A stretch of DNA of 64,000 bases from a phage: NCBI GenBank assembly GCA_036252695.1, contig GCA_036252695.1_4122.1; one strand, written 5' to 3'. Shown here in pieces: positions 3,118 through 64,000 of this stretch. Both the position numbers and the translations under genes were made by a program. The notes beneath the pieces were generated by a model, which saw only the letters and a list, made by a program, of their open reading frames with translations, had not been told where the DNA came from and did no database searches. Numbering within the stretch: the first letter of the stretch is position 1; the number at the start of each line of letters is the position of its first letter.

Positions 3118-3254
3118 TATTTGTGCAAATAAAAAGCAATGTGACTTTTCCTTGATATAGGTCAAGAGAAATAACCTGTTCTGACGCTATAATGTTGTCT
3201 GGTGATATTAAATATCTTCACCCCCAGATGATTTCAAAATACAAGGAATGTACA

Positions 3255-5060: not shown

Positions 5061-5068
5061 GGTAAATT

Positions 5069-5401: not shown

Positions 5402-5843
5402 TTTAGTAAATGGAGAGGGCGTTCGCTGCTCTTTATTTGTTAGTGGGTGTTCGCACGGATGTGATGGTTGCTTCAATGAAGAAGCATGGGACTACCGAAG
5501 TGGACAAGAGTTCAGTACTGAAACAGTTGAGATTATACTACAGGAACTAAAAAAACCATATGTTAGTGGTTTGTCACTTCTAGGCGGCGATCCATTAATG
5601 AAAAAGAATATAGATGAAGTTTTAAATCTATGCAAAGTAGTTAAAGAAACTTATCCTAGTAAAACTATTTGGTGCTGGAGTGGGTATACTTTAGATGAGA
5701 TTATGAAAAATCATGCTAAAGATATACTTCAGTACTTAGATGTATTAGTTGATGGTAAGTTTATCGAGTCCGAAAAGAATTTAAAATTACCTTTCCGTGG
5801 TTCAAATAATCAAAGAATACTATATAAAAATAAAGATTTTTAA
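5373..5843 (+). CDS. nrdG: anaerobic RNR activating protein (radical SAM)
   Basis: CxxxCxxC cluster (GCSHGCDGC) and end-to-end similarity to T4 NrdG (FVNGxG, GGDPL, RGSNNQR). Confidence 0.85.
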   Translation: MNYQTIMKDDLVNGEGVRCSLFVSGCSHGCDGCFNEEAWDYRSGQEFSTETVEIILQELKKPYVSGLSLLGGDPLMKKNIDEVLNLCKVVKETYPSKTIWCWSGYTLDEIMKNHAKDILQYLDVLVDGKFIESEKNLKLPFRGSNNQRILYKNKDF

Positions 5844-5847
5844 CATA

Positions 5848-5869
5848 AGCACCCATTGGGTGCTTTTTT
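5848..5869 (+). terminator. rho-independent terminator
   Basis: AGCACCC / GGGTGCT hairpin plus T6. Confidence 0.55.
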
Positions 5870-5877
5870 GTTATGTA

Positions 5878-5885
5878 TATAAATA
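5878..5885 (+). promoter_or_regulatory. T4-type late promoter core TATAAATA
   Basis: Exact TATAAATA about 35 nt upstream of the tail-fibre start codon. Confidence 0.4.
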
Positions 5886-5919
5886 CATTAACTAATATCT
5901 AATTTATAAGGGATATATA

Positions 5920-8616: not shown

Positions 8617-8627
8617 AGGATTACATA

Positions 8628-9215
8628 ATGGCATTTAAAATAAGAGCAGACCTTAAGGCAATGCAACAAGTTACAGTACAGGGTAAAAGTACTGGACTTG
8701 GTGTATTAGGTAATAATATGACTTATTACCCAACAAATTCAAATGGGGAATGTACATTCCCCTCTATTACCAAAGATGAAGTTAACTTTATTGTCAATGG
8801 ATTACCACTTACACAATACGGAGAATTGTATGATGACGCTAGTCTAAATATTACTTCATCAGGCTATAGTCTTACATTTAATAGACAGATACCATCATTT
8901 ATTGGTGGTTATCTTTATAAATTTCCAGCAGTTTCTATTTTTGCTTCAACTGTTTCATCTGGAACACAAACACAATATGTATATGCAACGTTAGTTCTCG
9001 GTGAACCAATTTATAAAATATCACCAACACAAATACAAGAATCTGAAATTATAATGTTTATTGGAACACTGACCGTTGGTACAAGTGGTATTACAAATAT
9101 AAACATTAATAAAGTATCCAGATTTAGTACATATAGACCTAGTGTTACACAAAAAGGTTCTTCATTCCCAGTCAGTACTGGAAAACCATCAGAAACTGGT
9201 ACAATTGGTTGGTAA
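8628..9215 (+). CDS. short tail-fibre-related protein sharing the fibre C-terminal module
   Basis: 195 aa; C-terminus ...GSSFPVSTGKPSETGTIGW matches the C-termini of both large fibres. Confidence 0.5.
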   Translation: MAFKIRADLKAMQQVTVQGKSTGLGVLGNNMTYYPTNSNGECTFPSITKDEVNFIVNGLPLTQYGELYDDASLNITSSGYSLTFNRQIPSFIGGYLYKFPAVSIFASTVSSGTQTQYVYATLVLGEPIYKISPTQIQESEIIMFIGTLTVGTSGITNININKVSRFSTYRPSVTQKGSSFPVSTGKPSETGTIGW

Positions 9216-9231
9216 ATTAAGGAAAAGAAAG

Positions 9232-11961: not shown

Positions 11962-11967
11962 TTTTAA

Positions 11968-11996
11968 AGCTCGTCTATTGACGGGCTTTTCTTTTA
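11968..11996 (+). terminator. rho-independent terminator
   Basis: AAGCTCGTC / ACGGGCTT hairpin followed by a T-run. Confidence 0.45.
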
Positions 11997-12028
11997 TGTG
12001 TATAATTGAATAAAAATAGGAGGAAATT

Positions 12029-12595
12029 ATGGTTAAATCTTTGCTACCACCACCAAAACGTCATAAAATCAAAGAAATGAAAGAACAACGTACATTAAAG
12101 ATGTACAACAATTTAGTTCAGTTACTGTGTAAAAGTCCATCGCTCAAAGCAGAGTTTAAAACTGATGATGACCGCAAAGCACTAATTGAGATGAAGTATA
12201 TGCTCAGTAAAATGTCCTTTTACAAATTTGTAAAAGAATACACAACTGACCCATTTAGTCCTCGTTGGAGATCCAAACCAAGAGAGTATTTTTACGGTGG
12301 TTCATATACGGATCGCATTCAAGACACAGTGATGGGAGTTGAATTTGAAATCGATTATGAGCCGAATGGTGTGGAAAGCTGGCCGATTGAGAAACGTTTA
12401 CCAAGTGAAGAAGAAATTTATGTTTATGCAAGAAAACTTTCAAATTTCAGTTCAAGAATTACTCTAGGCAATTTAGATTCATTTATTATTTTCTATACAC
12501 GTGTTGGTGTAGATAAAATGGTAACTAAACTCAATGAACTTTCATTACAACAAAAACAGATTAATGCATACAAAGACATTACTGATTTATACTAA
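12029..12595 (+). CDS. hypothetical protein, tandem paralogue family member 1
   Basis: GGAGG RBS; shares motif (D/N)D(D/N)R(K/R).(L/I)(I/L)..KY.LSK with the next two genes. Confidence 0.5.
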   Translation: MVKSLLPPPKRHKIKEMKEQRTLKMYNNLVQLLCKSPSLKAEFKTDDDRKALIEMKYMLSKMSFYKFVKEYTTDPFSPRWRSKPREYFYGGSYTDRIQDTVMGVEFEIDYEPNGVESWPIEKRLPSEEEIYVYARKLSNFSSRITLGNLDSFIIFYTRVGVDKMVTKLNELSLQQKQINAYKDITDLY

Positions 12596-12601
12596 TGAGG
12601 A

Positions 12602-13123
12602 ATGGATATGTTTTTTGGATCAGTTGGAAAACAAAACAGTACTTTAATTTGGCATGAAATTATCTTTAAAATTATATCTAAAAGCTACTCACTAAAGGAT
12701 ATTATTACCACAGATAATGATAGACGTATCCTGTTAGATGCAAAATATAAATTGAGCAAACACCCTTTACTTTCTTTAATCATTGATTACGTTTGTGATT
12801 ATGAATCTAGTCGTTGGAAGTGGGAAGACGGCGGTTTATTTCGTGGAAAAACATTCTACGGTGCGGAACGATATGTTTTCAGTGATACATCAAATGGCGT
12901 TAAGTTTGTTATTAGAAACTTTAACTCCAAAGAAAATGATTATCTTGAAAGTGGAGTGAAAGTATATATCGATAATAATAGCAATGTACTAACATATGAC
13001 GAATCACTAATTATGTTACAAATAATGCGTGGTGTTGAAGGTGTAAGAAACAACCTTACTAAATTGAAAATCCAGCAAAATGATATACATAATAGACAGA
13101 AAATTAAGGGTTTATATAAATGA
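12602..13123 (+). CDS. hypothetical protein, tandem paralogue family member 2
   Basis: Paralogue of 12029..12595. Confidence 0.5.
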   Translation: MDMFFGSVGKQNSTLIWHEIIFKIISKSYSLKDIITTDNDRRILLDAKYKLSKHPLLSLIIDYVCDYESSRWKWEDGGLFRGKTFYGAERYVFSDTSNGVKFVIRNFNSKENDYLESGVKVYIDNNSNVLTYDESLIMLQIMRGVEGVRNNLTKLKIQQNDIHNRQKIKGLYK

Positions 13124-13629
13124 TTTCATTTTTCAAAAAGAAACAAAAAGTTGATGAAACCGGATTAGAATCGTTTCTATGGACTCTTATCATCAAAAAA
13201 AGTCCATTGATAAAAGAATATGCTATCAATGATGCTAATAGAAAAACTATCATTGAATACAAATATGAATTATCTAAATGTGATCCAATTGTTTATCACT
13301 TTGCGAAGTACTGTTCAAAAAATTTATCGGATATCACAATCTACCACGAGTCAGTCCCAATGAGTTTTCCTTATGGTGATTGGGTAGATACTTTTGATAT
13401 TTTTGATGGGTCAAATGGTTTCAGTTTCTTTTACTCGTCAAATAAAGCAAGTGTTCGTATTAAAACAGACATAGGTTGGACAAAGCATAGCTCAAATAAA
13501 GAAGATTATAATTTATTAGCTGACGTATACCGAAGTGTGAAGAATTCAAAGGATATTGATGAAAGAATTAAAAAGCAAAATCGTATATCTTTATCACTTG
13601 AAACATACAAGTCAAAGTATGGTGGTTAA
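13120..13629 (+). CDS. hypothetical protein, tandem paralogue family member 3
   Basis: Paralogue of the two preceding genes; ATGA start-stop overlap. Confidence 0.5.
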   Translation: MISFFKKKQKVDETGLESFLWTLIIKKSPLIKEYAINDANRKTIIEYKYELSKCDPIVYHFAKYCSKNLSDITIYHESVPMSFPYGDWVDTFDIFDGSNGFSFFYSSNKASVRIKTDIGWTKHSSNKEDYNLLADVYRSVKNSKDIDERIKKQNRISLSLETYKSKYGG

Positions 13630-34596: not shown

Positions 34597-37260
34597 ATGG
34601 CAGGAGATCTACTCTCACCTGGCGTTTCCATTTCAGTAACTGATGAAAGTATGAGTACCGCTGCTGCTCCTGGCACTGTACCACTATTTGTAATCGCTAC
34701 TGCTGAAGACAAACTTGTCCCAGGAAGCAGTGCAATTGCTGCGGGAACTACTAAAGCAAACGCTGGAAAACTACAGCTTCTAACATCACAAAAAAGCTCA
34801 CTTGATACCTATGGTACACCAATTTTTCAAATGAATAACGGTTCTGTTGTTCAAGGTGATGAACTAAACGAATATGGCCTACATGCAGTATATTCTTATC
34901 TAGGCATTACTAACCGTGCATATGTAATTCGTGCTGATATCGATCTAGCACAACTAGCACCAAGTGCTGAAGCACCAACTGGCCCAGTATCCAATGGTAC
35001 TTTGTGGTTTGATACCGCACAATCACAAGTAGAAGCGTATGTAGCGAAGAAAGATAGTCCAAGCAGTTTTTATGATTGGCAACTTAAGCCAGTAACTATT
35101 GTAAGTGCTGAAGAAGTTGAAGATGTAAGTCTAGTAGGTTTAAATGTTGATGATTTAGTTCTACGTTACAAACCAAGCAATGGTCAGATGCTAATGTATA
35201 AACGTTCTGCTTCTGGGCTAGTGCAAATGGAAACTTATCTATCACCAATTAACAAAGTTCCAGTTGGCTCAACTGTAGAAAAAGGTAACATTTGGATTCG
35301 TGATGGTTACACCCAAAATGGTTCAAACTATTTTGGTACTCGTTTTGTTATTAAACGTTATGCATCCCTAACTCAAGTTTGGAATATTGTACCAGCATAT
35401 ACTGGTAATTCATTCCAAGAAATTGAAGCGAAAAGTGGTGTACTAAACAATAGTTATATCGCATCTCGTTTTGATGAAGATAGTAAGAGTTTCTCTTTCT
35501 ATATTCAAAGTGCAAAACTAACAACAATTAGTGCTCCTGCTTTGCCACTTGGTGAAACTATTATTGAACAAGCAGGTGCTGATAGTTATATGACTTTTGT
35601 TTATTTGAATAAATCAGTTAAAGTACTAGCAGTTCCACAAGGCGGTGTTATTAATACCCAAACTATCATCAATAATCTAAATGCAAATGCTGAAATTATT
35701 AACGATGGTTTTAAATTTAAACGTGAAACTAATGGTGGTTTAGTTGTTTCCAATACAAAAGGTTACAGTTTCAAAATCACACAAAGTGGTGATGATATTT
35801 TTGCTGAATCTGAACTACAAAAACTAACAGTAGATAGTAACAACTACTCTCTAATTAACGTGAATAACTTCCGTGTTAGTTATTCAGTACCACGTAGTGT
35901 AGCAAAAGAAGGAACTCTCTGGTATGATTTCGGGAACTCCGATAATCTAACTGTAACTATGTATGTTGCTGATGTTGCTAATGATGAATGGGATCTAGTA
36001 CAAGAAGAAAACAAATATGTACAAGTTGATGAACCAGCGGCTGACCGTTTAATTTGGGTTTGTCCTTTGTCTCAAGGCATTGATGGTTATGATTTCTATC
36101 GTAACGTTGATGGTGAATGGGTTAAACTTGACAGTACTGATCAAAGTACACTAAATGGTATGATTTTCCAAGACTTTAATTTCCCAAGCCAAGTTCCTGC
36201 TGCGGCATTGTATCAAAATGGTATGCTTGCAGTTGACCTAGGTAACACTGAAGGTGTTGTTAAGAAAATGGTTAATGGTCAATGGGAAGTTGTTAGTGGT
36301 GTAAGTCTTGATGGTGCTGGCCTATTTGGTCGTGCTGCACAACGTCAACTAGTAGTTGAAGCACTAGCTGCTGTTATTATTGGTAATGATGACATTCGTT
36401 CTGAATTTATTGATTTTAACCTAATTTGTGTACCTGGTTACGTTGAAACACTTGATGAATGTGTAACTTTAAACACTGATCGTAAAGAAACTGCATTTAT
36501 TGTTACTGACGTTCCAGCACGTTTGAATCCAACCGGAAACGGTAGTGCTGTACAACAATGGGCTACTAATGCTAACAATGCACCAAGCAACGGTTCAGTT
36601 GGTCGTACAACTGCTTATGATTATGCTGCTCAGTATATGGGTTGGTGTCTAAGTACTAACGTTGATGGTGAAGAAGTTGCAGTTCCTGGTAGTACTATTG
36701 CAATGCGTACATATGCATACAGTGATAGTGTTAGTTATGTATGGTATCCACCTGCTGGTACAACTCGTGGTGTTGTAACAAACGCTGCAAGTACTGGTTT
36801 TATCAACAGCGAAGGTGAATATCAACCAGTAGTATACAACCAAGGTCAACGTGACGTTATGTATACTAACAACATTAACCCAATTGCAATGCGTCCTAAC
36901 CGTGGATTGCTTGTTTATGGAGATAAAACTCTATCTGCTAATCAAACTTCTGCACTAAGTCGTGTTAACGTTGCTCGTTTAGTTGTTTATATTCGTCGTC
37001 AACTAGAAATTATTTCCGAACCATTCCTATTCCGTTTGAATACTCCAAGTACTCGTCAGGAATTTAGTGGTGTAGTTAATAGCTTCTTGGCTGAAATTGT
37101 TCAACAACAGGGTCTTTATAACTTCGCAGTGGTTTGTGATGAAAGTAACAACACCGCAGAGCGTATTGACCGTAATGAACTTTGGATGGATATTGCAATT
37201 CAACCAACTAAGAGTATTAACTTCATTTACGTACCAATCCGTATCGAGAAAACTCAATAA
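34597..37260 (+). CDS. contractile tail sheath protein (T4 gp18 homologue)
   Basis: N-terminal LLSPGV matches gp18 LLSPGI; C-terminus VCDESNNTAERIDRNEL...IQPTKSINFIYVP matches gp18 VCDTTNNTPSVIDRNEF...IQPARSINYITLN; 887 aa, GGAGGA RBS. Confidence 0.9.
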   Translation: MAGDLLSPGVSISVTDESMSTAAAPGTVPLFVIATAEDKLVPGSSAIAAGTTKANAGKLQLLTSQKSSLDTYGTPIFQMNNGSVVQGDELNEYGLHAVYSYLGITNRAYVIRADIDLAQLAPSAEAPTGPVSNGTLWFDTAQSQVEAYVAKKDSPSSFYDWQLKPVTIVSAEEVEDVSLVGLNVDDLVLRYKPSNGQMLMYKRSASGLVQMETYLSPINKVPVGSTVEKGNIWIRDGYTQNGSNYFGTRFVIKRYASLTQVWNIVPAYTGNSFQEIEAKSGVLNNSYIASRFDEDSKSFSFYIQSAKLTTISAPALPLGETIIEQAGADSYMTFVYLNKSVKVLAVPQGGVINTQTIINNLNANAEIINDGFKFKRETNGGLVVSNTKGYSFKITQSGDDIFAESELQKLTVDSNNYSLINVNNFRVSYSVPRSVAKEGTLWYDFGNSDNLTVTMYVADVANDEWDLVQEENKYVQVDEPAADRLIWVCPLSQGIDGYDFYRNVDGEWVKLDSTDQSTLNGMIFQDFNFPSQVPAAALYQNGMLAVDLGNTEGVVKKMVNGQWEVVSGVSLDGAGLFGRAAQRQLVVEALAAVIIGNDDIRSEFIDFNLICVPGYVETLDECVTLNTDRKETAFIVTDVPARLNPTGNGSAVQQWATNANNAPSNGSVGRTTAYDYAAQYMGWCLSTNVDGEEVAVPGSTIAMRTYAYSDSVSYVWYPPAGTTRGVVTNAASTGFINSEGEYQPVVYNQGQRDVMYTNNINPIAMRPNRGLLVYGDKTLSANQTSALSRVNVARLVVYIRRQLEIISEPFLFRLNTPSTRQEFSGVVNSFLAEIVQQQGLYNFAVVCDESNNTAERIDRNELWMDIAIQPTKSINFIYVPIRIEKTQ

Positions 37261-39226: not shown

Positions 39227-41334
<2,108 letters not shown>

Positions 41335-51472: not shown

Positions 51473-53437
51473 TTATCTAATTGTTACCAATGTTCTTCCG
51501 TCGAAACGTACATCAGGAGTTGAAGGTATACTAAACACTACGTTAGTGCCGTTAAACGTAACGCTATCGACCTCAACACGAGTATAGACACCAGGACTAA
51601 CCTGTTCCTGTATCTCTGCTGTGACGATGTTTGAGGCTGTTACAGTAAGGGTGTAGTAGTTACCACTTAATACCCAAGATGAAATTGTAAAAGCATCGGT
51701 TCTCACTGAACCTGAACCAATTGGAACCCATTGACCTTGAACTTTTTGCATTGAAGTACGCTCGGTATTGGAGTATGCAATCATACCATCAACGCCAACA
51801 GAGTTATCAATAGTAGCTAGTACTGGTAATTGGATACCATATCTATTAAAACGTGTTCTTATAGTTCCATTATCATAGATACTTACATCAGCATAATTAC
51901 CCATTGATAGTTTTAAATCAGAACTAACTAATTGGATTGTACTTTGATTAGTAGTACTTTCTAATGTAATTATACCATTAGCTAATAGATTTATATTTTT
52001 AAATTTATTAGTTGTTCCATTGAAATTAGTGTTTGCTGTAAACGTACTAACTCCATTAACTGTAATTGTATCAGATGCAGCATCGCCTAATGTAGTATTA
52101 CCTTGAATGTTCAAATTACCACTAGCAGTGATATTACTAGCTGATGTATCACCAGTCAATGTACTTGTACCATCAACCACAATATTACCATGAAACGCAC
52201 TTTCACCATTTTTAAATTCAACTTGTACTTTATTCATTGAACTAAATGAAATAATATTACTACTAGCACTTAGTCCAACATTAGTATTGGTTGCATTATC
52301 AAATCTTAGTACTGGGGTTGATGCTGGGGTTGAAGTTGTTTGGTATAATGTTAATGTTGAATTATTAATTCTAATACGTTCAGTTCCAGCAGTACTGAAA
52401 CCAATTGCATCATCTGCTGGATGAAACATACCAGTATTAGCGTCTGACCATTTTGCAGGATCATTACCTGGGTTATTGGTTGGATCAAATGGATTGTTAT
52501 TAAATGTCAATGCTGGTGCTGCTGCACTACCATAGACCACACCAAAACGCCCTGAGCCGCTTGTTCCATCATTATACATGGAATCACCAGTTCTACGTAA
52601 ACACTCAATCACAACGTTATCTATGGATGTTTGAACGGTCCCTGCGTTTGTCCTAAATTGACGATGATTTGCAATCATTACAGTATTGTCATATAATACT
52701 GAAGCAGCGGAAATGCTTGTTCTTGACTGGCGTAGACGTATGTTTTTATCTTCAGTTATAATAATCCAATCACCATCTGATAGTGCGGTTTGGTTCATTG
52801 GAACACCTGAAGCAAATGGTTTGGTTAAGTCAGCATCTGTTGCTAAATTTTTAAGACCATCATGACCAGTACTAGGAATAGATGCAGGAATAATTCTAGC
52901 GAAAGCGTATGTTACTAGTTTAGCACCAGATATATTTGGATTAGAGTCAACATAATATAAAATTTCAATCCAATTACCTTGTCCAGTTGGATTTGTAGGT
53001 GTAAATGTAACAGGACTTGTTTGTGGATTATTTGCTTCATAATGGGCTTGTGCGGCATCCATAATACCACGAACAACATAATAATCACCATTTAGTGATG
53101 CTGCTGGTGCTGGTAGTGGTGTTTGTGCTAAAGGTGGATCAATATCATCTGGGATAGGATTGTATGTACCAACAAACTGTAAACCACTAGTTACTGAATC
53201 TGGTAATTGGGAAGTAAGAAGTTTACCATTTGCATCTAAGTTTGCAAAGCGGCGATATGCCATAGTACCATCTTCAAAATCCAGAACACCTTCAAATGAT
53301 TTCCATTCCTTATTGTATCTAATCATCCCTGATCTTATTACATCAGCGGTTTCTTTTGATGGTGCTTTCGGTAACTCTAAAAAAGATTTACTATCAATAA
53401 TTACACCACCATCACCTCTAATTCGATTTATACTCAT
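51473..53437 (-). CDS. tail fibre protein (654 aa)
   Basis: GAGGAA RBS; Thr/Ser/Asn/Gly-rich with beta-rich repeats; part of the minus-strand fibre cluster. Confidence 0.65.
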   Translation of the reverse strand: MSINRIRGDGGVIIDSKSFLELPKAPSKETADVIRSGMIRYNKEWKSFEGVLDFEDGTMAYRRFANLDANGKLLTSQLPDSVTSGLQFVGTYNPIPDDIDPPLAQTPLPAPAASLNGDYYVVRGIMDAAQAHYEANNPQTSPVTFTPTNPTGQGNWIEILYYVDSNPNISGAKLVTYAFARIIPASIPSTGHDGLKNLATDADLTKPFASGVPMNQTALSDGDWIIITEDKNIRLRQSRTSISAASVLYDNTVMIANHRQFRTNAGTVQTSIDNVVIECLRRTGDSMYNDGTSGSGRFGVVYGSAAAPALTFNNNPFDPTNNPGNDPAKWSDANTGMFHPADDAIGFSTAGTERIRINNSTLTLYQTTSTPASTPVLRFDNATNTNVGLSASSNIISFSSMNKVQVEFKNGESAFHGNIVVDGTSTLTGDTSASNITASGNLNIQGNTTLGDAASDTITVNGVSTFTANTNFNGTTNKFKNINLLANGIITLESTTNQSTIQLVSSDLKLSMGNYADVSIYDNGTIRTRFNRYGIQLPVLATIDNSVGVDGMIAYSNTERTSMQKVQGQWVPIGSGSVRTDAFTISSWVLSGNYYTLTVTASNIVTAEIQEQVSPGVYTRVEVDSVTFNGTNVVFSIPSTPDVRFDGRTLVTIR

Positions 53438-54365: not shown

Positions 54366-57300
54366 TTAAGCAGTACGTTGTGCAATAAACATATCTGTTA
54401 CTGGACTCACACCGTCATAAATGACTTGGTAGATAGTTACAGAGTTTGCAGTTTTGTTCAGTGTGCCATCAACAACCGCATAAGTACCATCAGTAGTAAA
54501 GTTTCTATTACCTGTTGCATCTTGTTTCACATAAATGTATACTGAAGATGCTTTACCACCACCGATTAGACCAGTGATTGGTGCTAGAGTGGTATCTTGA
54601 TCTAGAGTGATAAAGTATACGTTGCTAGTACCGTCTGGGGTCCAAGTACCAGTTGGTGCGATAACAGAAGAAGTTACTTGATTAGGAATAACATCATATT
54701 TTTTAGTAGTTACTGTTGTAGTAGTTAGGTCAGCATTAGTAGTTGTTAATTGACCAGTTACAGTTACATCTTTATCAAATACTGCATTTTCTTTGAAAGA
54801 AGATGTTGCATTGACAGTTAATGTATCAGCAGCAGCGTCACCTAAAACAACACTACCATTTGCAGTCATTAAACCAGTAACAGTTAAAGTACCACCGATT
54901 GTTGCTGCTCCAGTAACAGATGCACTAGCAAGTGTTGCTGCACCAGAAGTAGTAATGGTAGTTACTGAAGTTGCTGCTAGGGTTGCAGTACCTGTTGCAG
55001 AAATATCACCACCAACAGTTAGGTTACCAGAAGTAATTCCAACGGTTCCAGTAATGTTAGCACCACTTGACATTGTTACTGCACCACCAAATGAACCAGT
55101 AGTAGTTACTTCAAGGGTGTTCCCTTTTAGTAGACCAGTTGCAGTAATACTTGTACCTGCGGTAATACTAGTACCAGCAGCAACACTGTTGGTTGCAGTT
55201 AATGATTTAACAGCCACGTCAGAGTTTGCTTGGTTTAGTGTTGCGTTAAGTAGACCAGTTACTGTAAAGTTACCGTTGTTAACTACGTTACCATTGATTG
55301 TTAAGTTGTTGTTTTGTGAACCAACATCACCAATAGTTGCTGATTTGGAAATCAACTCTGCACCAGAAGTAATATTACCCGCTGCACTAATAGTGTCCGC
55401 CGCAACAACTGCATAAGGTTCAATTGTTTGACCACTAACGTCAATATCAGCGTTGATACCACCATCTACACGCAAGGAGCCAGCAATGTAAGTATTAGGG
55501 AAAATCTGAACTGTCTCTGGTTGATCGCCAATTTTAGTACCGATAATAACATCAGCACCAGTTTTAACTGCACCAGAGGTTGTTAGAGAACCTAAAGTTG
55601 TAGCACCAGTTACACCTAATGTACCACCAATTGTTGCGTTATTAGTAACTGCTAACGCAGCACCTTCACCATTAAGAGCGATTGATGGAGCAGATACTGC
55701 ACCAGTTACGCCTAATGTGCCACCAATTGTTGCGTTGCCATCTGAATGTAGAGTTGTAGCTACAGAAAGACTGTTAGCAACTACATCAGTACTAGCTAAA
55801 TCCAATGCACCTGGGGTTAATGTACCAGTAATGTTAACATTATTACCAAAGGTCGCTGCACCAGTCACATCTAGTGTAGTACTAAATGTACCAGATGTTG
55901 CAGAGATTGCACCTGAATCTAGTGATCCAACAGTTGCTTTACCAGTTACACCTAAAGTTCCACCAACAGTTCCATTTGTGGTTACATCCAATGTACCAGT
56001 ACTTAGTTCTTGTGCGGTTACCTTACCGGATGCAGTAACAGTTGAAGTGGAAACACCACCAGTTAGAGTACTAGCACCAGTAACACTTAATGTGGTTGCC
56101 GCAGTTACGCTATTCACACTAAGATCAGCACCGGATAAGTCCAAACCACCTTCAGGAACAAATACACCCTTAACAGTTAGTTTTTGTACTGTACTATCAC
56201 CTGTTACATCCAATGTAGAAGCAGTTAAACCACCATTCATACTTGCTGCACCAGTAACACCTAGTGTAGTGGTTACAGTAGCACTATTAAGTGTTGAGCT
56301 ACCAGAAATATTAGCACTAGAAGCAGTAATAGTTCCAGAATCAACTTGTATACCACCAGCAACAACCTGAATTCCACCAGCATTAACTGTTAGTTTACCA
56401 GCAGTATTCAATGTATTTGAAACTGTTGTTGCACCAGTTAAAGTTGTAGTGCCAGTTACACCTAAGTTACCAGAAATAGATGGACTACCTGTAATGTTAC
56501 CAGTAGTTAGTATCAAATCAGTACCTACGGTAGTGGAGCCAGTACTTTCTAGTGTTACACCGACGATGTTTGCAGAACTTAGGTTAATAGTACCATCAAC
56601 AGTTAAGTTACCTTGAACGGTTGCATCACCTAGAGAAGTTAATGTCTTCACAGACACATCAGTTGTGCTAAGATCAATAACACCCGCAGTTAGTGTTCCA
56701 GATACTGCTAAATTACCAGTAATCGCGGTATTTTTAGTAATGGATACATTTTCTGCCGCTGAAGTAATAGAACCAACAGTAAGTACACCACCAACAGTTG
56801 CGTTATTAGTTACATTTAGAGCAGTTCCAACACCAGATAGTGTTGCTGACCCACCAGTAATTGCACCTGAGATTGAAGCTGTTGCTGCTGAAACATCACC
56901 AGAAACTACTGCATTTGTTGCATTTAGAGCAGACACAGTAACTTCAGTACTTTGAACTTTAGGTAGAACGTTGATACCTTCTGCACTACTAACTGTAATA
57001 ATACCAGTACTTGTTAGAGATTTAACAGATACATCAGCACCACTTAAATCAACTGTACCAGAAACAACAAGATCTCCACCAATATTTGCTCCAGCGGTAG
57101 TAGTAATGGATTTTGCACTTACATCAGTTGTGCTCAAATCAATTGCACCTGGTGTTACTGTACCAGAAACTGTTAGGTCACCAGTAATAGATGTATTATT
57201 GGAAATAGATACACCATCAACGTTACTAATTGTTGGGGTTTCTACAGAAACTGCTTTAACTTTACCTGAAGAAGTTACGTCAGCTACGGTAGATGCACCA

Positions 57301-59891
57301 GTAACATTCAAATTAGTAATATTTGCAGTTGTTGAACCAAGGGTTGCAATAGTTGCATCAGTACTTTGAAGTTTAGGTAGAACACTACTAATTGTGGATT
57401 CATTACTAACAATTGCACCAGTACTAGTTAAAGATTTGACAGTAACATCAGCCGTAGTAAGATCTACTGTACCATTAACAGTTAGGTTACCACCAATAGT
57501 TGCACCAGCAGTAGTAGTAATGGATTTAGCATTAACATCAGTTGTTGCTAGATCGATAGAGCCTGGAATAACTGCACCAGTAACAGTTAGGTCACCAGTT
57601 ACATTTGTATTATTGGAAATAGTGACACCACTTGCATTTGAAATGGTTGGGGTAACCAACGATGCAGTTGTAGTTTCACCAGTTACAGTTAAAGTTGACC
57701 CAACTAGAACAGATGAGCTTGAGTAAATTGTACCCAAATTAGCAGATCCGGTAACAGTTATATCATCAGCATTAACAGTAGTTGCCGTTATGGTAGTACT
57801 ATTAAGTACTGGAAGTACGTTAGCATTAACAAGATCATTACTTTTAACAATACCAGAAGTAGTTAATGATTTAACATTAAGGTCGGCTGCTGATAAATCA
57901 AAAGAGCCTTGAACTACTAAATCACCACCAATAGTTGCACCAGCAGTAGTAGTGATTGATTTAGCATTAATATCGGTAGTGCTCAAGTCTAGAGAACCAA
58001 CAGTTAAGCTACCAGTAATATCAACATTTTCTGTAAAGTTAGTATTACCACTAATAGTTGGTGCAGTCAGAGTTGTTGCACTAATATTAGTACCGTTAAT
58101 TGTTTGCCCACTTACAGTTCCACTCGCAGTGATAGTAGGGGCCGTTACTTCAGTAGATGCACTAATTGTTGGTGCAGATACAGAAGTTGTACCAGTAATA
58201 GAACCAGAACTTACTGAACCAGCGGATAATGCACCAGAAAGAGTTGCAGTTGTACCAGCAATATCACCAGTAACAGTTAGTTTAGCACCCACGGTAGTGT
58301 TACCAGTACTTTCAAGTGTTGCACCTTTAATATTTGCTGCCGCGACAACAGAATTAGGTGTTAGATCCTGCCCACTAACATCAACAGTTAGTCCAGTTAC
58401 TGTTCCAGTAAATTCAACATCATTAAGAATTGCTTTACCACCAACTTGTAGGAATGGTGTACCTGGAGCTTGTGTTTCGTTACCAGTAATAGTTAGGTAA
58501 TCTAGTTTGTTTAGACCGTTACCAGTAATACCATAAGTGGAAAGAGAAGCGTTACCGAAAGTTGCTGTTTTAAGAACGTTCAATGTAGAAGGAGAAACGA
58601 CTTCTGATTGAACTTCGTTAGGTAGAATAACTGTTGGGCGTTGACCTGGTGCAGTATATCCAAAACCTAGTTTCACTGCCGCATCTTGACTATTTTGACC
58701 TAAGCTGATAGCTTTAAAGGATGCAGTACTGTTATAACCAGTAATATTAGAACCAAGAGTAACACCACCAACTAATGAAGTTACACCAGTAACGTTCAAA
58801 GATACTGCATTAATATCGTCTAGTTGGAACGTTCCACCAAGAAGACCAGAAACATTAATGTTATTAAAATTAGCAGTACCAGTACTTTCGATATTTGGAA
58901 TAGTTGCAGTTCCGGTTACTTCAAAGTCAGCAACTTTAGTTTTTCCTTTTTGAACTTCTAATAGTGGTGTGTCTGGTGATTGTGTATTGTTACCAGAAAC
59001 TGTTAGATAATCTAATTTGTTTAGACCATTACCAGTAATACCATAAGAAGATAATGACGCATTACCAAAAGAAGCAGAGGTCAATACTGTCAAGTTTGCA
59101 GGTGACATTAGCTCGGACTGAATTTCGTTTTGTAGAATAACAGTTGGGCGTTTACCAGGAGCAGTGTAAGGGAAGCTTAATCTGAAGGTTTGTGATTCAG
59201 AGTTAGAACCAATACGAATGTCTTTAAAAGTAGCAGTACTGTTAATACCAGTTACGTTAGCACCGAAAGTTACTGCACCTTGTTGGTTAGATGCACCAGT
59301 AACGTTCAATGTTACTGCATTTAAGTCAGATAGATTAAACTCACCACCAAGTGTACCACTAATTGTCACATCGTTAAATGTAGCAGTACCAGTACTACTA
59401 ATATCTGTTGTACTTACATTAGTAATTTCTGCGGTATTAGCAGTAATTTTATCAAATGCAGCAGTAGTCCCAACATCAGCAGTAATATTACCTTTAAATG
59501 CTGTTGTTTCAGCAACTTCTAAGTTTTTAACTTTAGTTGCTTGTAGAGTGGTTGTACCAGCAGTTTGTGTAAAATCAGAACCAACTGATACAGTACCGTT
59601 AAAGGTAGCGTTTGAATTAATTGTTGCTGTATCAGACCCGACAACTGCACTACCGATTGTAGTATTACCCTCAACACCAAGACCACCAGAAAGTGTTGCT
59701 TTGCCACCTACATCTAAAGTAGATGTAATGTTGGCAGTTGATGATTCAATGGCAGTAAAAGTTGCATTTGCAAAAGTTACAGTACCATTTACAGTTAGGT
59801 TATTGTTGAAAACAGCATTTCCTTTGACTAAAAGATCCTTACCAACCGTACCAGCACCAGTAATATCTAAGTCAGTTTTTATTGAGTACAT
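54366..59891 (-). CDS. giant tail fibre / adhesin-like protein (1841 aa) with internal tandem repeats
   Basis: GGAGGG RBS; extremely Thr/Gly/Ser/Ala/Val-rich; contains a ~170-aa duplicated segment and three or more ~135-aa repeat units. Confidence 0.7.
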   Translation of the reverse strand: MYSIKTDLDITGAGTVGKDLLVKGNAVFNNNLTVNGTVTFANATFTAIESSTANITSTLDVGGKATLSGGLGVEGNTTIGSAVVGSDTATINSNATFNGTVSVGSDFTQTAGTTTLQATKVKNLEVAETTAFKGNITADVGTTAAFDKITANTAEITNVSTTDISSTGTATFNDVTISGTLGGEFNLSDLNAVTLNVTGASNQQGAVTFGANVTGINSTATFKDIRIGSNSESQTFRLSFPYTAPGKRPTVILQNEIQSELMSPANLTVLTSASFGNASLSSYGITGNGLNKLDYLTVSGNNTQSPDTPLLEVQKGKTKVADFEVTGTATIPNIESTGTANFNNINVSGLLGGTFQLDDINAVSLNVTGVTSLVGGVTLGSNITGYNSTASFKAISLGQNSQDAAVKLGFGYTAPGQRPTVILPNEVQSEVVSPSTLNVLKTATFGNASLSTYGITGNGLNKLDYLTITGNETQAPGTPFLQVGGKAILNDVEFTGTVTGLTVDVSGQDLTPNSVVAAANIKGATLESTGNTTVGAKLTVTGDIAGTTATLSGALSAGSVSSGSITGTTSVSAPTISASTEVTAPTITASGTVSGQTINGTNISATTLTAPTISGNTNFTENVDITGSLTVGSLDLSTTDINAKSITTTAGATIGGDLVVQGSFDLSAADLNVKSLTTSGIVKSNDLVNANVLPVLNSTTITATTVNADDITVTGSANLGTIYSSSSVLVGSTLTVTGETTTASLVTPTISNASGVTISNNTNVTGDLTVTGAVIPGSIDLATTDVNAKSITTTAGATIGGNLTVNGTVDLTTADVTVKSLTSTGAIVSNESTISSVLPKLQSTDATIATLGSTTANITNLNVTGASTVADVTSSGKVKAVSVETPTISNVDGVSISNNTSITGDLTVSGTVTPGAIDLSTTDVSAKSITTTAGANIGGDLVVSGTVDLSGADVSVKSLTSTGIITVSSAEGINVLPKVQSTEVTVSALNATNAVVSGDVSAATASISGAITGGSATLSGVGTALNVTNNATVGGVLTVGSITSAAENVSITKNTAITGNLAVSGTLTAGVIDLSTTDVSVKTLTSLGDATVQGNLTVDGTINLSSANIVGVTLESTGSTTVGTDLILTTGNITGSPSISGNLGVTGTTTLTGATTVSNTLNTAGKLTVNAGGIQVVAGGIQVDSGTITASSANISGSSTLNSATVTTTLGVTGAASMNGGLTASTLDVTGDSTVQKLTVKGVFVPEGGLDLSGADLSVNSVTAATTLSVTGASTLTGGVSTSTVTASGKVTAQELSTGTLDVTTNGTVGGTLGVTGKATVGSLDSGAISATSGTFSTTLDVTGAATFGNNVNITGTLTPGALDLASTDVVANSLSVATTLHSDGNATIGGTLGVTGAVSAPSIALNGEGAALAVTNNATIGGTLGVTGATTLGSLTTSGAVKTGADVIIGTKIGDQPETVQIFPNTYIAGSLRVDGGINADIDVSGQTIEPYAVVAADTISAAGNITSGAELISKSATIGDVGSQNNNLTINGNVVNNGNFTVTGLLNATLNQANSDVAVKSLTATNSVAAGTSITAGTSITATGLLKGNTLEVTTTGSFGGAVTMSSGANITGTVGITSGNLTVGGDISATGTATLAATSVTTITTSGAATLASASVTGAATIGGTLTVTGLMTANGSVVLGDAAADTLTVNATSSFKENAVFDKDVTVTGQLTTTNADLTTTTVTTKKYDVIPNQVTSSVIAPTGTWTPDGTSNVYFITLDQDTTLAPITGLIGGGKASSVYIYVKQDATGNRNFTTDGTYAVVDGTLNKTANSVTIYQVIYDGVSPVTDMFIAQRTA
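56640..58030 (-). repeat. in-frame tandem coding repeats (~415-430 bp unit, about 3.3 copies) inside giant fibre gene
   Basis: Repeated DNA blocks seen near 56650, 57001, 57418 and 57851, encoding (I/L)DLSTTDV.AKSITTTAGA.IGG.L.V.GT.DL. Confidence 0.5.
58440..59460 (-). repeat. in-frame tandem duplication (~510 bp x 2) inside giant fibre gene
   Basis: 58451-58570 aligns with 58961-59080 at the DNA level; encodes duplicated TGTA(T/N)FN...GITGNGLNKLDYLT segment. Confidence 0.5.
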
Positions 59892-59994
59892 TTATACCCT
59901 CCATTATAACCTTGTTAATATGTATATATTTAGTTTTATTATGCTGTTATCCAACAATTAATATGTTATTTGACAAAAGCAAATATAATAAAAA

Positions 59995-60020
59995 CCAGAC
60001 TTATTTAGAACAAGTCTGGT
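59995..60020 (-). terminator. rho-independent terminator (minus strand)
   Basis: CCAGACTT / AAGTCTGG hairpin flanked by A-run and T-run. Confidence 0.45.
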
Positions 60021-60028
60021 TAATTTTT

Positions 60029-60925
60029 TTACTTACCAGAGATGACAATCTTACCACTGAAAGAAATATCAGAAGTGAAGATTACATCACCAGTACTACT
60101 AATTTGTGTATCAGTCACTACCAATTCAAATGGAGATGACGAAACACTCCCAGGTGTTTTATTTGCATAAATTGAAATATACAAATTATCTGGTGTTTGA
60201 TTGTGTTCAGATGCAGGAATAGTGATTGTAAAATCACCATCACTAGAAACCCAATCTGCTTGGTTTACCAATTTACTATAAGGTACTGTCATTGTTGTTG
60301 CTCCTATAATGTTTACTTTAACACTTGCATAATCTGTGATTTGACCAATCACATCAATTGTTATATCCCCAATACCACTAACTGTTACTGTGGTTTGGAA
60401 TACTGATTCCAATGCAACATTACCTGGGTCACCTTGTAGTTGGATCATAATATCAGAACCTCTACCATGAACTGATTCTGGTAGTGTGTAAGTATAATGA
60501 TCAGTAGTATCTGGCACTAATGTAAATGCAGAAACAGGAACTATTTCAGTAGTTACATATGAGCTATCAGTCCCAGGTGAGCTACCTTTAAATGGTTTCC
60601 AAATACCAAGATCTTTAATATAAATTTGAAGAACATTAGTACTATCAACCAAAAAGTAAACGTCACCATCTAGACCGATCGAATCGGATGGTGCTGTTGT
60701 TCCACGTAAGATACCAGAACTACCACCACCACTGTGTGCGTTTAAATATCCCAATGTAACCAAGTGTGTGTTTGCAGTTGGTTCACCTGCTGAAATTGGA
60801 AGAAGTTGTGTTCCTGAGTAGTTTTGAATTTGCACAACACTACCATTTGTGGTAATCTGTGCACCATTCTTCCCAAGAATGAAGGACTTCTTCATGGTTC
60901 CTTCTAAATTAGAAAAAACTGCCAT
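60029..60925 (-). CDS. tail fibre/spike protein with conserved N-terminal anchor module (298 aa)
   Basis: AAAGGAG RBS; N-terminus MAVFSNLEGTMKKSFILGKNGAQI paralogous to N-terminus of 60942..63083. Confidence 0.55.
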   Translation of the reverse strand: MAVFSNLEGTMKKSFILGKNGAQITTNGSVVQIQNYSGTQLLPISAGEPTANTHLVTLGYLNAHSGGGSSGILRGTTAPSDSIGLDGDVYFLVDSTNVLQIYIKDLGIWKPFKGSSPGTDSSYVTTEIVPVSAFTLVPDTTDHYTYTLPESVHGRGSDIMIQLQGDPGNVALESVFQTTVTVSGIGDITIDVIGQITDYASVKVNIIGATTMTVPYSKLVNQADWVSSDGDFTITIPASEHNQTPDNLYISIYANKTPGSVSSSPFELVVTDTQISSTGDVIFTSDISFSGKIVISGK

Positions 60926-60941
60926 TTTAATATAATCTCCT

Positions 60942-63083
60942 TTATGGTAGGGTTATGTAAGTTACGGGTTGGGCAGCTTTTAATGCTGCACCAGCGGCAG
61001 TTGCTGTTATGATAGGATCTGCAATATCAATTCTATATACGTTGTTTACAACATACACTGCACGAGTTATATACGTTCTCAAATCACCACCATTTTCACC
61101 AGCACCGGATATAATGATCTCAGTACCAGCAGCTTTTGCATATTGGTTTTCACCCCATGACACACCCAATGCTTCTATGTATGTTTGTCCTGCTACCGTT
61201 TGTCTAATTGTGTCATATTTTCCGAAAAAAGAACCACCAACAGTTACAATATATTTTCCACCCGATTGTTTATGAATAATCGTGCCTTCAGAGAAATAGC
61301 GTCCCCCAGGAAAAGTATCGTATGGAATATAATATTGCTCAACTACAGGTATCAGTACTGGGCCACGGTGTCCTGTACCATCGATTGCAGTTGTAACTTT
61401 AAAGTTATTAGATGATTGGTCTATTCTGTCTACATACATTTTAGAAAAACTATATTTTGAAACATTACAATCATCTTGAACAACACAGTTAGTCCAATTA
61501 GTATAAGTATATTTAGAGCGAGTATAGATACCACCACCTTCGCCTTCGGTAGAGAGGTGTTGACCAATTACATCTAATTCTTTAGTTCTAATATCACTAA
61601 ATTTAGATGATGATGGCAAACCACGCCAAAGGATTTTAGAACAGGTGATATTGCTCAATTCTGTATTATTTAACCAATTATCAGAACCGGAAGTATAAAC
61701 AAGTATAGAAGACTCTGGAATATAGAGATTAGAAATTTTAAAGTTTCTAGGTGGTCCAGCAAAACGACCAGAAGTTACACCCCAGTTTATTGAAACCATT
61801 CTATTTGTGATAGAAGGATCATTAAGCAAATGACCAGTCAACCCATCAATAATGAATTCTTTCGAACCATAAGTTATAACACCAGCAGTGGTTAATCCAG
61901 TACCAACAGAAACTAAAGATGATGGATAAACTTCATTATTAAGTATTTTAAAGTCCATTCCTAATTCAACGTGGATACATTGTCTAACATTATATAGTCT
62001 GTTATTTTTAATAACAAAGTTTCTGACATATTGTGTATCTGGTGCATCTAAACCATAAGGACCAGAACCAGCAACGCCAATACCAATGCCCCAGTTTGAA
62101 AGTGGGATTGGAGCGTTAGAACCATCAACGTTTTCAATTACGTTTCCTTCAATCACAAAACCATCAGGATAATGTGAGTTAATTACGTTTAGTTCAATTG
62201 CATCACCATATATATCATGTATGTGGTTATATGAATATCTACCAACCTTCATTTTCTCACCAGTACCTTGTTGAAGAACACCATACTTACATTGGGTCAT
62301 TTCATTAAAGCAAAAATCTATTGTTCCTGGTTGTGTCATACCTTGCATTAAAAATGCAGCAGTACTTGTGATGTTTATAAATTTATTAAAATAAAACTTA
62401 CCATCGCCACCGAAGAATTTTAAATAACATCCAGTAAGTGTTGCAAATTGTATTTGGGAATTAATAACGGATACCATAGTACCACCATTACCAGTAATAG
62501 TTCCCCCAAACCAAGTTACATCTTCCAGGTATATTGCAGTTTTGATACGGTAATTACCACCAGCCTGAATTTGGATTTTATTTTCTTTAGCATAAGCAGC
62601 ACATAAATTTACAGCAGCAGTGTCATCAGTTTCGCCATCACCTTTAGCACCAAATTCTTCTGGTGTTATATAAAACTGGGCCTGTTGAACTGTACCTCCA
62701 GTAATAAGTCCGATGAAATCGCCACCATTTTTACTGGATATAACTTTTTTATTAATGTATAATGATTTTACCCATGTGCCATTACTTTTTGCAAAAATAT
62801 CAACAATACCATCTTCATCAATTTGAAAATACGTATTATTGTTCTTTCCTACATCATCGGTAGGGGGTACAACACCAAATAATGCATTAGGGTTATCTTC
62901 AAGATATTTTACGTTAACTGCTGAATTAGGGTCAGATGAAGTTCCTACCTTCAGTGGTAGGAACTGTTCTCCTAGATAATCTTTTATAGAAACTGAATCA
63001 TTGATAAAATTTATTGAAGCACCTTTTTTCCCCAATATGAATTTGGGCTGCATAGTTCCTTCAAAATTAGAAAATACTGCCAT
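60942..63083 (-). CDS. tailspike protein with predicted right-handed beta-helix (possible polysaccharide depolymerase)
   Basis: AGGGAGGA RBS; shared N-terminal anchor MAVFSNFEGTMQPKFILGKKGASI; central region with repetitive Asn/Gly/Val beta-helix-like rungs. Confidence 0.6.
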   Translation of the reverse strand: MAVFSNFEGTMQPKFILGKKGASINFINDSVSIKDYLGEQFLPLKVGTSSDPNSAVNVKYLEDNPNALFGVVPPTDDVGKNNNTYFQIDEDGIVDIFAKSNGTWVKSLYINKKVISSKNGGDFIGLITGGTVQQAQFYITPEEFGAKGDGETDDTAAVNLCAAYAKENKIQIQAGGNYRIKTAIYLEDVTWFGGTITGNGGTMVSVINSQIQFATLTGCYLKFFGGDGKFYFNKFINITSTAAFLMQGMTQPGTIDFCFNEMTQCKYGVLQQGTGEKMKVGRYSYNHIHDIYGDAIELNVINSHYPDGFVIEGNVIENVDGSNAPIPLSNWGIGIGVAGSGPYGLDAPDTQYVRNFVIKNNRLYNVRQCIHVELGMDFKILNNEVYPSSLVSVGTGLTTAGVITYGSKEFIIDGLTGHLLNDPSITNRMVSINWGVTSGRFAGPPRNFKISNLYIPESSILVYTSGSDNWLNNTELSNITCSKILWRGLPSSSKFSDIRTKELDVIGQHLSTEGEGGGIYTRSKYTYTNWTNCVVQDDCNVSKYSFSKMYVDRIDQSSNNFKVTTAIDGTGHRGPVLIPVVEQYYIPYDTFPGGRYFSEGTIIHKQSGGKYIVTVGGSFFGKYDTIRQTVAGQTYIEALGVSWGENQYAKAAGTEIIISGAGENGGDLRTYITRAVYVVNNVYRIDIADPIITATAAGAALKAAQPVTYITLP

Positions 63084-63097
63084 TATGACATCCTCCC

Positions 63098-64000
63098 TTA
63101 AATATTATCTTGAATCGGTTGGATAGGAGCTTGCCATGAAAGAGTACAAATAATTTCCATTTTTCCATAAGGACTGTTGTTAACAGAATCGTTGAATACA
63201 CATGAAATAATTTCATCAACATCGGATGCTGCATGATTAGTTTCATTAACAATAAAACGCATCTGACGATTGATATCAAAGTAGGAAGTTGGTGCAATTA
63301 CAGTCCCACCAATATCTTCTTGTGCTTCACCACCAAAACGTACAAACATATCAGTTACAGGAAGAGAATAAGGTTGTATAACGTTTACATCAATATTAGA
63401 AACTACATATCCAGCAGGACACGTACCAATAACTAATAGTGCGTTAGTCCATGAGCTATCTATTGTATTTCTAATAGAAATTGTATCTTTACCTGGTGCA
63501 CCTGGTTCGCCTTGTATACCTTGAATACCTTGCTGACCTTCTTTACCACGGAATAGAATACCCTCACTCCACTCTTTTGCAGGAGGGGTAGTTGTAGTTA
63601 CTTCATCAACATAATATAGTTTTCCATCAGTGTTGTTATAAAAACAATAATCAACTGGAAGATTTTCAATACTTGGAAATTGATCACCACTGCTATCAAT
63701 ATGGAAACGACCACGCGGACCTTGTTCACCACGGAAAGGTATACCATCACTCCAAGTAGCAGTTACACTTTGATAGAAATAAAGTTTACCATCTTGAGTA
63801 TTATAAAATGTATAGTTATCAAAAAGACCAGTTGTTGGGAAAGTAGTTCCAGCACTATCAATGTGGAACGGCTTACCCGCTTCACCCGTATCACCTTTAC
63901 CAAACTCAACACTAATCCATGTACTTGTCGGATCTTGTGCATCATTTGATTTAAAGTATAGAGTACTGGTATTGTTAGCCAAGCTTAAGTAGCACCACCC
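63098..64000 (-). CDS. collagen-like repeat-containing tail fibre protein (5' end beyond window)
   Basis: Gly-X-Y runs (GKGDTGEAGKP, GEQGPRGR, GKEGQQGIQGIQGEPGAPGKD); reading frame stays open to the window edge, so the true start is probably outside. Confidence 0.6.
   Translation of the reverse strand, partial: GWCYLSLANNTSTLYFKSNDAQDPTSTWISVEFGKGDTGEAGKPFHIDSAGTTFPTTGLFDNYTFYNTQDGKLYFYQSVTATWSDGIPFRGEQGPRGRFHIDSSGDQFPSIENLPVDYCFYNNTDGKLYYVDEVTTTTPPAKEWSEGILFRGKEGQQGIQGIQGEPGAPGKDTISIRNTIDSSWTNALLVIGTCPAGYVVSNIDVNVIQPYSLPVTDMFVRFGGEAQEDIGGTVIAPTSYFDINRQMRFIVNETNHAASDVDEIISCVFNDSVNNSPYGKMEIICTLSWQAPIQPIQDNI

Follow-up and report, generated by a model that had tools for sequence, protein, structure and literature searches.

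A stretch of phage DNA of 64,000 nucleotides (contig GCA_036252695.1_4122.1 of GenBank assembly GCA_036252695.1; hereafter, the window) carries two adjacent minus-strand genes whose products, of 713 and 298 amino acids (aa), begin with the same kind of N-terminal module and then diverge. We consider it probable that this module contains an anchor, shared by the two, which mounts a colanic acid-degrading tailspike (colanidase) and an ancestral 298-aa protein on the virion of an Asteriusvirus. The anchor would dock a trimer of either protein at a site of the same kind, on the tail or the baseplate, and the favoured candidate for its partner would be a co-transcribed, collagen-like tail protein, here called gp574-like. 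The 298-aa protein, bearing two Ig-like beta-sandwich domains, would be the ancestral occupant; in the E. coli lineage a gene of the 298-aa type would have been duplicated and its interior swapped for a horizontally acquired WcaM/colanidase beta-helix body, the result being a virion-borne enzyme that would cut colanic acid and open the surface of mucoid or slime-covered cells to the phage.

Judging from nucleotide identity, the source is an Asteriusvirus jumbo myophage of E. coli (121Q/PBECO4/phAPEC6 type), a genus with genomes of about 350 kb: the 3,055-base segment with the two genes is 99.9% identical to Escherichia phages SHEFM2K, phAPEC6 and SP27, 99.6% to 121Q and 99.5% to PBECO4. The gene of the 713-aa protein (60942-63083, minus strand) is the ortholog of 121Q gp573 ("colanic acid-degrading protein") and of the PBECO4 "colanic acid degrading protein", and that of the 298-aa protein (60029-60925, minus strand; phrog_10468) is the ortholog of 121Q gp572 ("structural protein"), CBB_227 and GAP32_221. 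Both open reading frames (ORFs) start with ATG and each has an AGGAG-like ribosome-binding site.

The shared N-terminal module

The two N-termini, MAVFSNLEGTMKKSFILGKNGAQ in the 298-aa protein and MAVFSNFEGTMQPKFILGKKGAS in the 713-aa protein, are identical at 17 of their first 23 residues. An earlier reading of the letters alone (the sequence-only reading) had picked out this adjacent pair, the near-identity of its N-termini and the complete divergence downstream, and all three hold; the length of about 25 residues that it gave to the shared part does not, since BLASTP aligns residues 1-109 of the 298-aa protein with residues 1-104 of the 713-aa protein (38% identity, E 1e-19), that is, a module of about 105 aa, and finds no similarity beyond about residue 105. 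When a hidden Markov model (HMM) of residues 1-66 was searched against every six-frame ORF of at least 50 aa in the window, it matched exactly two, the 298-aa protein (E 1e-36) and the 713-aa protein (E 2e-29), which places the similarity far beyond chance.

At the nucleotide level, the first 69 positions of the two genes are 72% identical (50/69), above the rest of the module. This could speak for a recent gene conversion between the adjacent genes; however, within the first ~22 codons, 6 of the 15 identical codons able to vary differ synonymously, and residues M1, A2, F4, S5, N6, G9, T10, G18, K19 and G21 do not vary in orthologs of as little as 42% identity, single-copy orthologs of distant phages included. 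The synonymous differences and this invariance indicate that the near-identity of the first ~22 residues reflects a constraint at the protein level, and gene conversion, to which we give almost no weight, was rejected on the synonymous differences.

Profile comparisons show the module to be bipartite, with a lineage-specific anchor of 66 aa followed by one unit of a widespread repeat of ~45 aa. The anchor (aa 1-66) lies at 60728-60925 in the gene of the 298-aa protein and at 62886-63083 in that of the 713-aa protein, both on the minus strand. On the same strand, the repeat unit covers aa 67-112 of the 298-aa protein (60590-60727; repeat HMM E 1e-25), where a poly-Gly loop stands before it, and aa 67-106 of the 713-aa protein (62766-62885; E 2e-19), colanidase-type modules being without the loop. 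The consensus of the repeat is G-x-P...G-x-x-(G/N)(D/N)-x-Y...K-x-x-G-x-W, and in the AlphaFold2 (AF2) models of both proteins the unit is a small beta domain, which may act as a trimerisation knob. Pfam (E <= 10) and PDB profile searches with the module gave nothing significant, that is, neither a branching-domain match nor a PDB sequence match, and the Pfam copy used holds no model for the ~45-residue repeat. Some motifs of the gp574-like protein resemble the repeat unit by eye; the repeat HMM finds none there at E < 0.01.

The 713-aa colanidase tailspike

By its sequence and its predicted structure, the 713-aa protein is a beta-helix depolymerase tailspike that is already known. It is identical at 712 of 713 residues to PBECO4 AGC35227.1 ("putative colanic acid degrading protein"), it matches phrog_6117 (E 2e-263), and its residues 96-712 match PDB 6e0v, a chain of the phi92 gp150 colanidase tailspike (E 4e-235). 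With the phi92-type protein of phage muut (804 aa) it shares 57% identity over 617 aa, from muut residue 189 on, while the first ~188 residues of the muut protein are unrelated to its N-terminus. An identity of 27-33% between the module and the phi92-type N-terminus in MAFFT alignments was discarded as an artefact of gap placement, BLASTP giving nothing.

The match to the paralog runs out at about W104-K106, and from about S107, where a junction and neck begin (aa 107-140; 62664-62765, minus strand), the sequence is robustly similar to phi92-type colanidases. Junction and neck are followed by the catalytic body, a predicted right-handed beta-helix, and the C-terminal domain (aa 141-713; 60945-62663, minus strand), assigned to the WcaM family PF27800 by precomputed annotation of close homologs. 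The AF2 model, built from a composite alignment (mean predicted local distance difference test score, pLDDT, 80), has a small N-terminal beta module, a low-confidence neck (pLDDT <50 at residues 109-136 of the monomer) and a long beta-helix, with short strands in a long run from residue 149 to 506 and a pLDDT mostly >80 in the body. Foldseek retrieved 6e0v as the best match to this model (TM 0.74, E 1.6e-54) and then the tailspikes of HK620, Sf6, CBA120 and Det7, so that the beta-helix depolymerase tailspike foreseen from the letters is borne out by structure prediction as well as by homology.

The activity, hydrolysis of colanic acid, is taken from the literature on the PBECO4 and phi92 enzymes and would apply here by homology. 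Kim et al. 2015 are said to have found that the purified PBECO4 enzyme degraded colanic acid and let T7 infect mucoid resistant mutants. The enzyme assay that the sequence-only reading had proposed for the purified product is in essence published for this 712/713-identical protein. PMC10059673, in which the PBECO4 gene is called gp547, refers to Kim et al. 2015 (Appl Environ Microbiol 81:900) for polysaccharide degradation; PMC13450770, citing Xu et al. 2025, states that phi92 gp150 hydrolyses the Glc-beta-1,4-Fuc bond of colanic acid.

In phage JP4, an in-frame deletion at a GDGE/GAGE microhomology has removed colanidase residues 152-659 and kept the module (locus L006, 3501-4106). JP4 was isolated and propagated lytically despite this deletion, and the enzyme body is therefore dispensable on its isolation host. 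The JNE01 gene is split into ORFs of 141 and 588 aa (locus L007, 3501-5643), by a frameshift or a sequencing error. Orthologs in BF17, slurp01, Sharanji and UE-S1 carry the misleading annotation 'colanic acid biosynthesis protein', and that of CRJP21 is misannotated as 'MutT/NUDIX hydrolase family protein'.

The 298-aa virion protein

The 298-aa protein matches phrog_10468 ('virion structural protein') with an E of 1.5e-100. A database search with it returned homologs in 73 clusters, at 41-85% identity and nearly all full-length; in 72 of them the length is 284-309 aa, the remaining one having 203 aa on a 6-kb contig. The hosts of the phages concerned include Escherichia, Salmonella, Cronobacter, Yersinia, Erwinia, Pectobacterium, Serratia and Xanthomonas. 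Over the C-terminal 188 residues, identity is 41-45% to the proteins of CBB (Pectobacterium), GAP32 (Cronobacter), Munch (Salmonella), fHe-Yen9-04 (Yersinia), XaC1 (Xanthomonas) and others. This near-constant length and conservation across diverse hosts make the protein unlike a swappable receptor binder, the role that the sequence-only reading had given it; on this comparison of homologs, it is a conserved core virion protein of Rak2-like jumbo phages and not a host-specific, exchangeable receptor-binding protein.

In the AF2 model (pLDDT 77.6), residues 1-70 are poorly defined, and a small beta domain (residues 71-111) is followed by two confident beta-sandwiches. These putative Ig-like domains (aa ~121-206 and 207-298) are encoded at 60032-60589 on the minus strand, and the second of them has a homolog in the C-terminal domain of P0079, a metagenomic protein described below. 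A likeness seen by eye between the last domain and the C-terminus of another metagenomic protein, P0174, is not significant by BLASTP.

Anchor and repeat in other phages

A module profile, run against 1.84 billion representative proteins, gave 513 matches, of which the best 150 were examined. Among these 150, the anchor (positions 1-66) is present in ~20 clusters, always at the extreme N-terminus, and the proteins that bear it are members of the gp572 family, colanidases, stand-alone proteins of ~113-115 aa and proteins with other bodies. At least four other body types stand behind the anchor in metagenomes: a pectate-lyase-like body with a Peptidase_S74 chaperone (P0149), a Beta_helix (P0162), a BNR/sortilin propeller (P0174, P0192, P0206 and P0253, of which P0206 and P0253 also have CBM_5_12) and an unassigned body (P0236). 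P0123, an unrelated metagenomic protein of 113 aa, is a stand-alone module. On L011, a Rak2-like metagenomic contig of 120 kb that is syntenic with window positions 3192-13629, two extra anchor-bearing tailspike genes flank phrog_3573 paralogs; the two are not in this window.

As to cultured phages, the anchor is found almost only in Rak2-like jumbo phages, the single outlier being a weak match in Salicola phage SCTP-2. The E. coli phages of this group (Asteriusvirus and close relatives) have two copies per genome and the other cultured Rak2-like phages one, and the same pattern was observed at 18 IMG/VR loci. The ~45-aa repeat is spread much more widely: hundreds of large proteins contain 4-16 units each, interleaved with collagen GXY, as in P0125, P0129 (with Pfam Collagen) and P0130. 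Its carriers are large phage-fibre-like proteins and one Gram-positive LPXTG surface protein.

The colanidase body is itself highly mobile. In the list of its homologs it stands behind at least six different types of N-terminal anchor, its partners including PF09008 (P22 head-binding), PF03906 (T7 fibre N-terminal), PF18668 (TSP1/gp66 N-terminal), PF26208 and PF12571, and bacterial copies are without any anchor. The modular swapping that the sequence-only reading had proposed is thus supported from both sides, for the enzyme body and for the anchor; it does not extend to the 298-aa protein, a core protein of constant length.

Evolutionary history

RaK2 and K64-1 have kept the module as a stand-alone ORF of 115 aa between the homologs of gp574 and gp569; one contiguous deletion has removed the giant fibre, the DUF4376 gene and the Ig-like domains together. 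The module can therefore stand alone. The joint loss is weak evidence for a functional link of the Ig-like domains with the giant fibre.

The colanidase-type modules form a clade of their own, with 58-66% identity among themselves and 33-42% to every gp572 ortholog. P0079 (792 aa), whose gene adjoins thymidylate synthase on a Rak2-like contig, begins with a module of the colanidase type, continues with a body 50% identical to the colanidase and ends in the last of the gp572 Ig-like domains (34% identity, E 4e-13). This intermediate points to capture of the enzyme body by a duplicate of a gp572-like gene. The simplest reading of these sequences would be that the colanidase body took the place of the middle of the duplicated gene, the terminal domain being lost later in Asteriusvirus.

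Presence in the virion and alternative explanations

The presence of the colanidase in the virion is inferred; the protein with which it has the N-terminal module in common has an ortholog in the CBB virion. Electrospray ionisation tandem mass spectrometry (ESI-MS/MS) detected every one of CBB_224 to CBB_228 in virions, CBB_227 with 5 peptides and 32% coverage (PMC5259590). The mass spectrometry (MS) table of phAPEC6 lists gp253, the gp574 homolog, at 65.6% coverage, and gp256, the giant fibre (PMC7247149).

Several observations weigh against the explanation given at the outset. The colanidase and the 298-aa protein are both missing from the virion MS lists of phAPEC6 and JP4, and the RaK2 list is without ORF061 or ORF062. 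For phAPEC6 the absence is probably technical, because the genome record (MK817115; locus L009, 1-2337 and 7864-11069) is without coding sequences (CDSs) for gp254, gp255, gp257 and gp258, the four that its MS table also lacks, with the ORFs intact, and because in CBB the orthologs of gp257 and gp258 are abundant virion proteins (PMC5259590). For JP4 it is weak evidence since the data set is shallow, with 49 proteins, mostly of 1-2 peptides each, and the gp574-like protein missed as well. The models are poor where the anchor lies, the pLDDT being <50 at residues 1-12 and 45-70 of the 298-aa protein and weak at residues 1-9 and part of 50-70 of the 713-aa protein; as Pfam and PDB hold no match to the anchor either, its fold and its docking function are putative. 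Finally, colanidase-type modules are equally distant from all gp572 orthologs, which makes the duplication an old or a fast-evolving one and gives no root for its direction.

Taking these points into consideration, other explanations were weighed. The sequence-only reading had placed both proteins, as receptor-binding proteins, in a branched, multi-receptor apparatus, in which the C-terminal domains of the 298-aa protein would bind a second receptor. We regard this as rather unlikely: that protein is near-constant in length and its C-terminal half conserved across many host genera, unlike host-specific receptor-binding tips; Pfam detects neither a T4 gp10-like branching domain nor the TSP1/gp66-type PF18668 in the two proteins or the four fibre-cluster neighbours scanned with them; and the published electron micrographs of phAPEC6 and CBB show six short baseplate fibres and whiskers, unbranched (PMC7247149, PMC5259590). 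It is improbable, too, that the module is a folding or trimerisation unit only, with virion attachment elsewhere or nil: the anchor is almost restricted to one lineage among cultured phages and always stands at the extreme N-terminus in the best 150 of the 513 matches, it was retained in the stand-alone ORF of RaK2 and K64-1 after the cargo had been deleted, and its ten residues invariant in both paralog families show a lineage-specific conservation that a pure trimerisation unit does not need.

The colanidase could also be a soluble enzyme freed at lysis, its N-terminal similarity a functionless relic. The PHROGs category ('moron/auxiliary'), the absence from the MS lists of phAPEC6 and JP4 and the lytic growth of JP4 with a deleted body are all in keeping with this. 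Against it, the invariant anchor residues are kept in colanidase orthologs that are just 58-66% identical in the module, JP4 lost the catalytic body and kept the module in frame, and the body, wherever a relative has been characterised, belongs to a virion tailspike fused to an anchor of virion type (P22 head-binding, T7 fibre N-terminus, TSP1/gp66 N-terminus); we therefore consider it highly improbable. Beyond the shared anchoring of the two proteins, which we continue to favour, a wider proposal is put forward more tentatively, as a possibility that we would not yet count on: the 66-residue MA(V/I)FSN...GK.G anchor may define a plug-in docking system, so far undescribed, by which Rak2-like jumbo phages have one virion site for several cargoes. 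The default cargo might then be the Ig-like domains of gp572, and the 115-aa protein of RaK2 and K64-1 might be a bare plug. Enzymatic spikes might be further options, with the colanidase, the pectate-lyase-like body with its S74 chaperone, the beta-helix or the BNR propeller.

Gene neighbourhood

The minus-strand cluster of 121Q runs gp574 (tail protein), gp573, gp572, gp571 (1841-aa fibre), gp570 (DUF4376) and gp569 (654 aa), followed by thymidylate synthase on the opposite strand. Synteny of the gp574-like gene, the gp572-like gene, the giant fibre, the DUF4376 protein, the gp569-like gene and thymidylate synthase is present in 121Q and CBB; the CBB locus (CBB_228, CBB_227, CBB_226 as the fibre, CBB_225 as the DUF4376 protein, CBB_224 and thymidylate synthase) matches except for the colanidase. 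The gp574-like gene adjoins an anchor gene upstream, in the same orientation, in 121Q, PBECO4, JP4, JNE01, A4, phAPEC6, CBB, RaK2 and K64-1. Between the gp574-like and gp572-like genes, a colanidase gene is present in 121Q, PBECO4, JP4, JNE01 and A4, and locus comparison found no gene at that position in CBB, RaK2 and K64-1.

In the window, the gp574-like gene ('tail protein', 371 aa in 121Q) is represented by its 3' part, at 63098-64000 on the minus strand. The gene extends past the window end, with its first ~77 codons outside, and was listed as a 294-aa ORF with a TTG start; its protein has two short collagen-like GXY runs and a globular C-terminal part without known fold. Gaps of 14 and 16 nt separate the gp574-like, 713-aa and 298-aa genes, and a terminator-like hairpin (59993-60021, minus strand; 13-bp stem and T-run) lies directly 3' of the 298-aa gene; the start of the giant fibre gene follows at 137 nt. 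The tight spacing and the hairpin fit a single late transcription unit of the three genes, and it is this apparent co-transcription that makes the gp574-like protein a candidate docking partner.

The giant fibre gene (54366-59891, minus strand) encodes 1841 aa here and in 121Q, 2129 aa in JP4 and 1553 aa in CBB, and is missing from RaK2 and K64-1. Long plus-strand ORFs run antisense inside this repetitive gene, for example 59218-59961; the 247-aa one among them is CDS AGC35229.1 in PBECO4 and is probably a spurious call. RaK2 ORF060w (510 aa; locus L002, 12513-14045) is a homolog of the 654-aa protein (51473-53437, minus strand), with 51% identity over the N-terminal 345 aa, 35% over the C-terminal 130 aa and the middle missing in RaK2; the version on metagenomic contig L010 has 1050 aa. 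The Sharanji paper relates that a study of SHEFM2K, the closest relative of the window, suggested flagellar structures as Asteriusvirus receptors (PMC11895373).

Three plus-strand fibre genes had also been claimed for the window, a claim that is not borne out: the 887-aa product is the tail sheath (34597-37260), and the other two, of 898 aa (5920-8616) and 909 aa (9232-11961), are virion-protein paralogs of phrog_3573, a family without an assigned function. The 909-aa paralog is JP4_235, which was detected in JP4 virions; it was listed from an upstream GTG (9142), the true start being the ATG at 9232. Other large plus-strand ORFs encode the tail tube (39227-40321) and the anaerobic ribonucleotide reductase NrdD (3192-5060).

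Significance

Both genes and the enzyme are already known and annotated in dozens of genomes, and the enzyme has already been proposed as an anti-capsule and anti-biofilm tool. The literature searched yielded no study of these two Asteriusvirus genes, nor did it describe the anchor that they share, the division into two parts, the wider anchor family or the P0079 intermediate. The new element is how the enzyme would be mounted, by a lineage-specific N-terminal anchor borrowed from a core virion protein; among modular tailspikes, a class well known in itself, this anchor type is new. The module can be divided into a proposed docking part and a repeat of a generic trimer type, other spikes of uncultured relatives make use of it as well, and residues ~105-108 offer a concrete boundary at which enzymatic bodies could be exchanged, on Asteriusvirus as on other Rak2-like jumbo phages. 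If the plug-in proposal is true, a second anchor-bearing gene would be a route to depolymerase gain and the anchor a handle for jumbo-phage retargeting. An unannotated domain family, the anchor, and an unannotated widespread repeat are flagged for curation, and annotations such as 'colanic acid biosynthesis protein' and 'MutT/NUDIX hydrolase' are corrected.

Comparison with known systems

The closest counterpart of the 713-aa protein, the PBECO4 colanic-acid-degrading enzyme, agrees with it at 712 of 713 residues and in genomic position, and nothing of substance differs; the module in common with the adjacent gene is, as far as could be seen, mentioned neither in the work on that enzyme nor in genome annotations. 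Likewise, the 298-aa protein is a full-length member of the CBB_227/GAP32_221/121Q gp572 family at the same locus, with no difference. With phi92 gp150 (PDB 6e0v/6e0w; Justusliebigvirus) the colanidase has in common the beta-helix body and the C-terminal domain, of matching fold; however, the phi92-type protein has its own unrelated N-terminus of ~188 residues (PF26208, precomputed) and belongs to a 150-kb myophage of another family, while the anchor of the 713-aa protein is specific to Rak2-like jumbo phages.

The Klebsiella podophages of the KP32/KP34 type, the tailspike protein (TSP) complexes of CBA120 and G7C and gp526-534 of RaK2 are alike in logic, with varied bodies on a common N-terminal element, although the RaK2 depolymerase fibres gp526-534 carry CBA120-like N-domains and not this anchor, an uncurated domain unrelated to those of such systems. 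According to PMC6872550, PMC13352976 and PMC10253068, short shared N-terminal docking elements fix enzymatic bodies to a common partner and permit exchange of the bodies. A conserved N-terminal element common to several proteins is also found here, with two anchor proteins per genome and a putative docking role, as an analogy of logic only.

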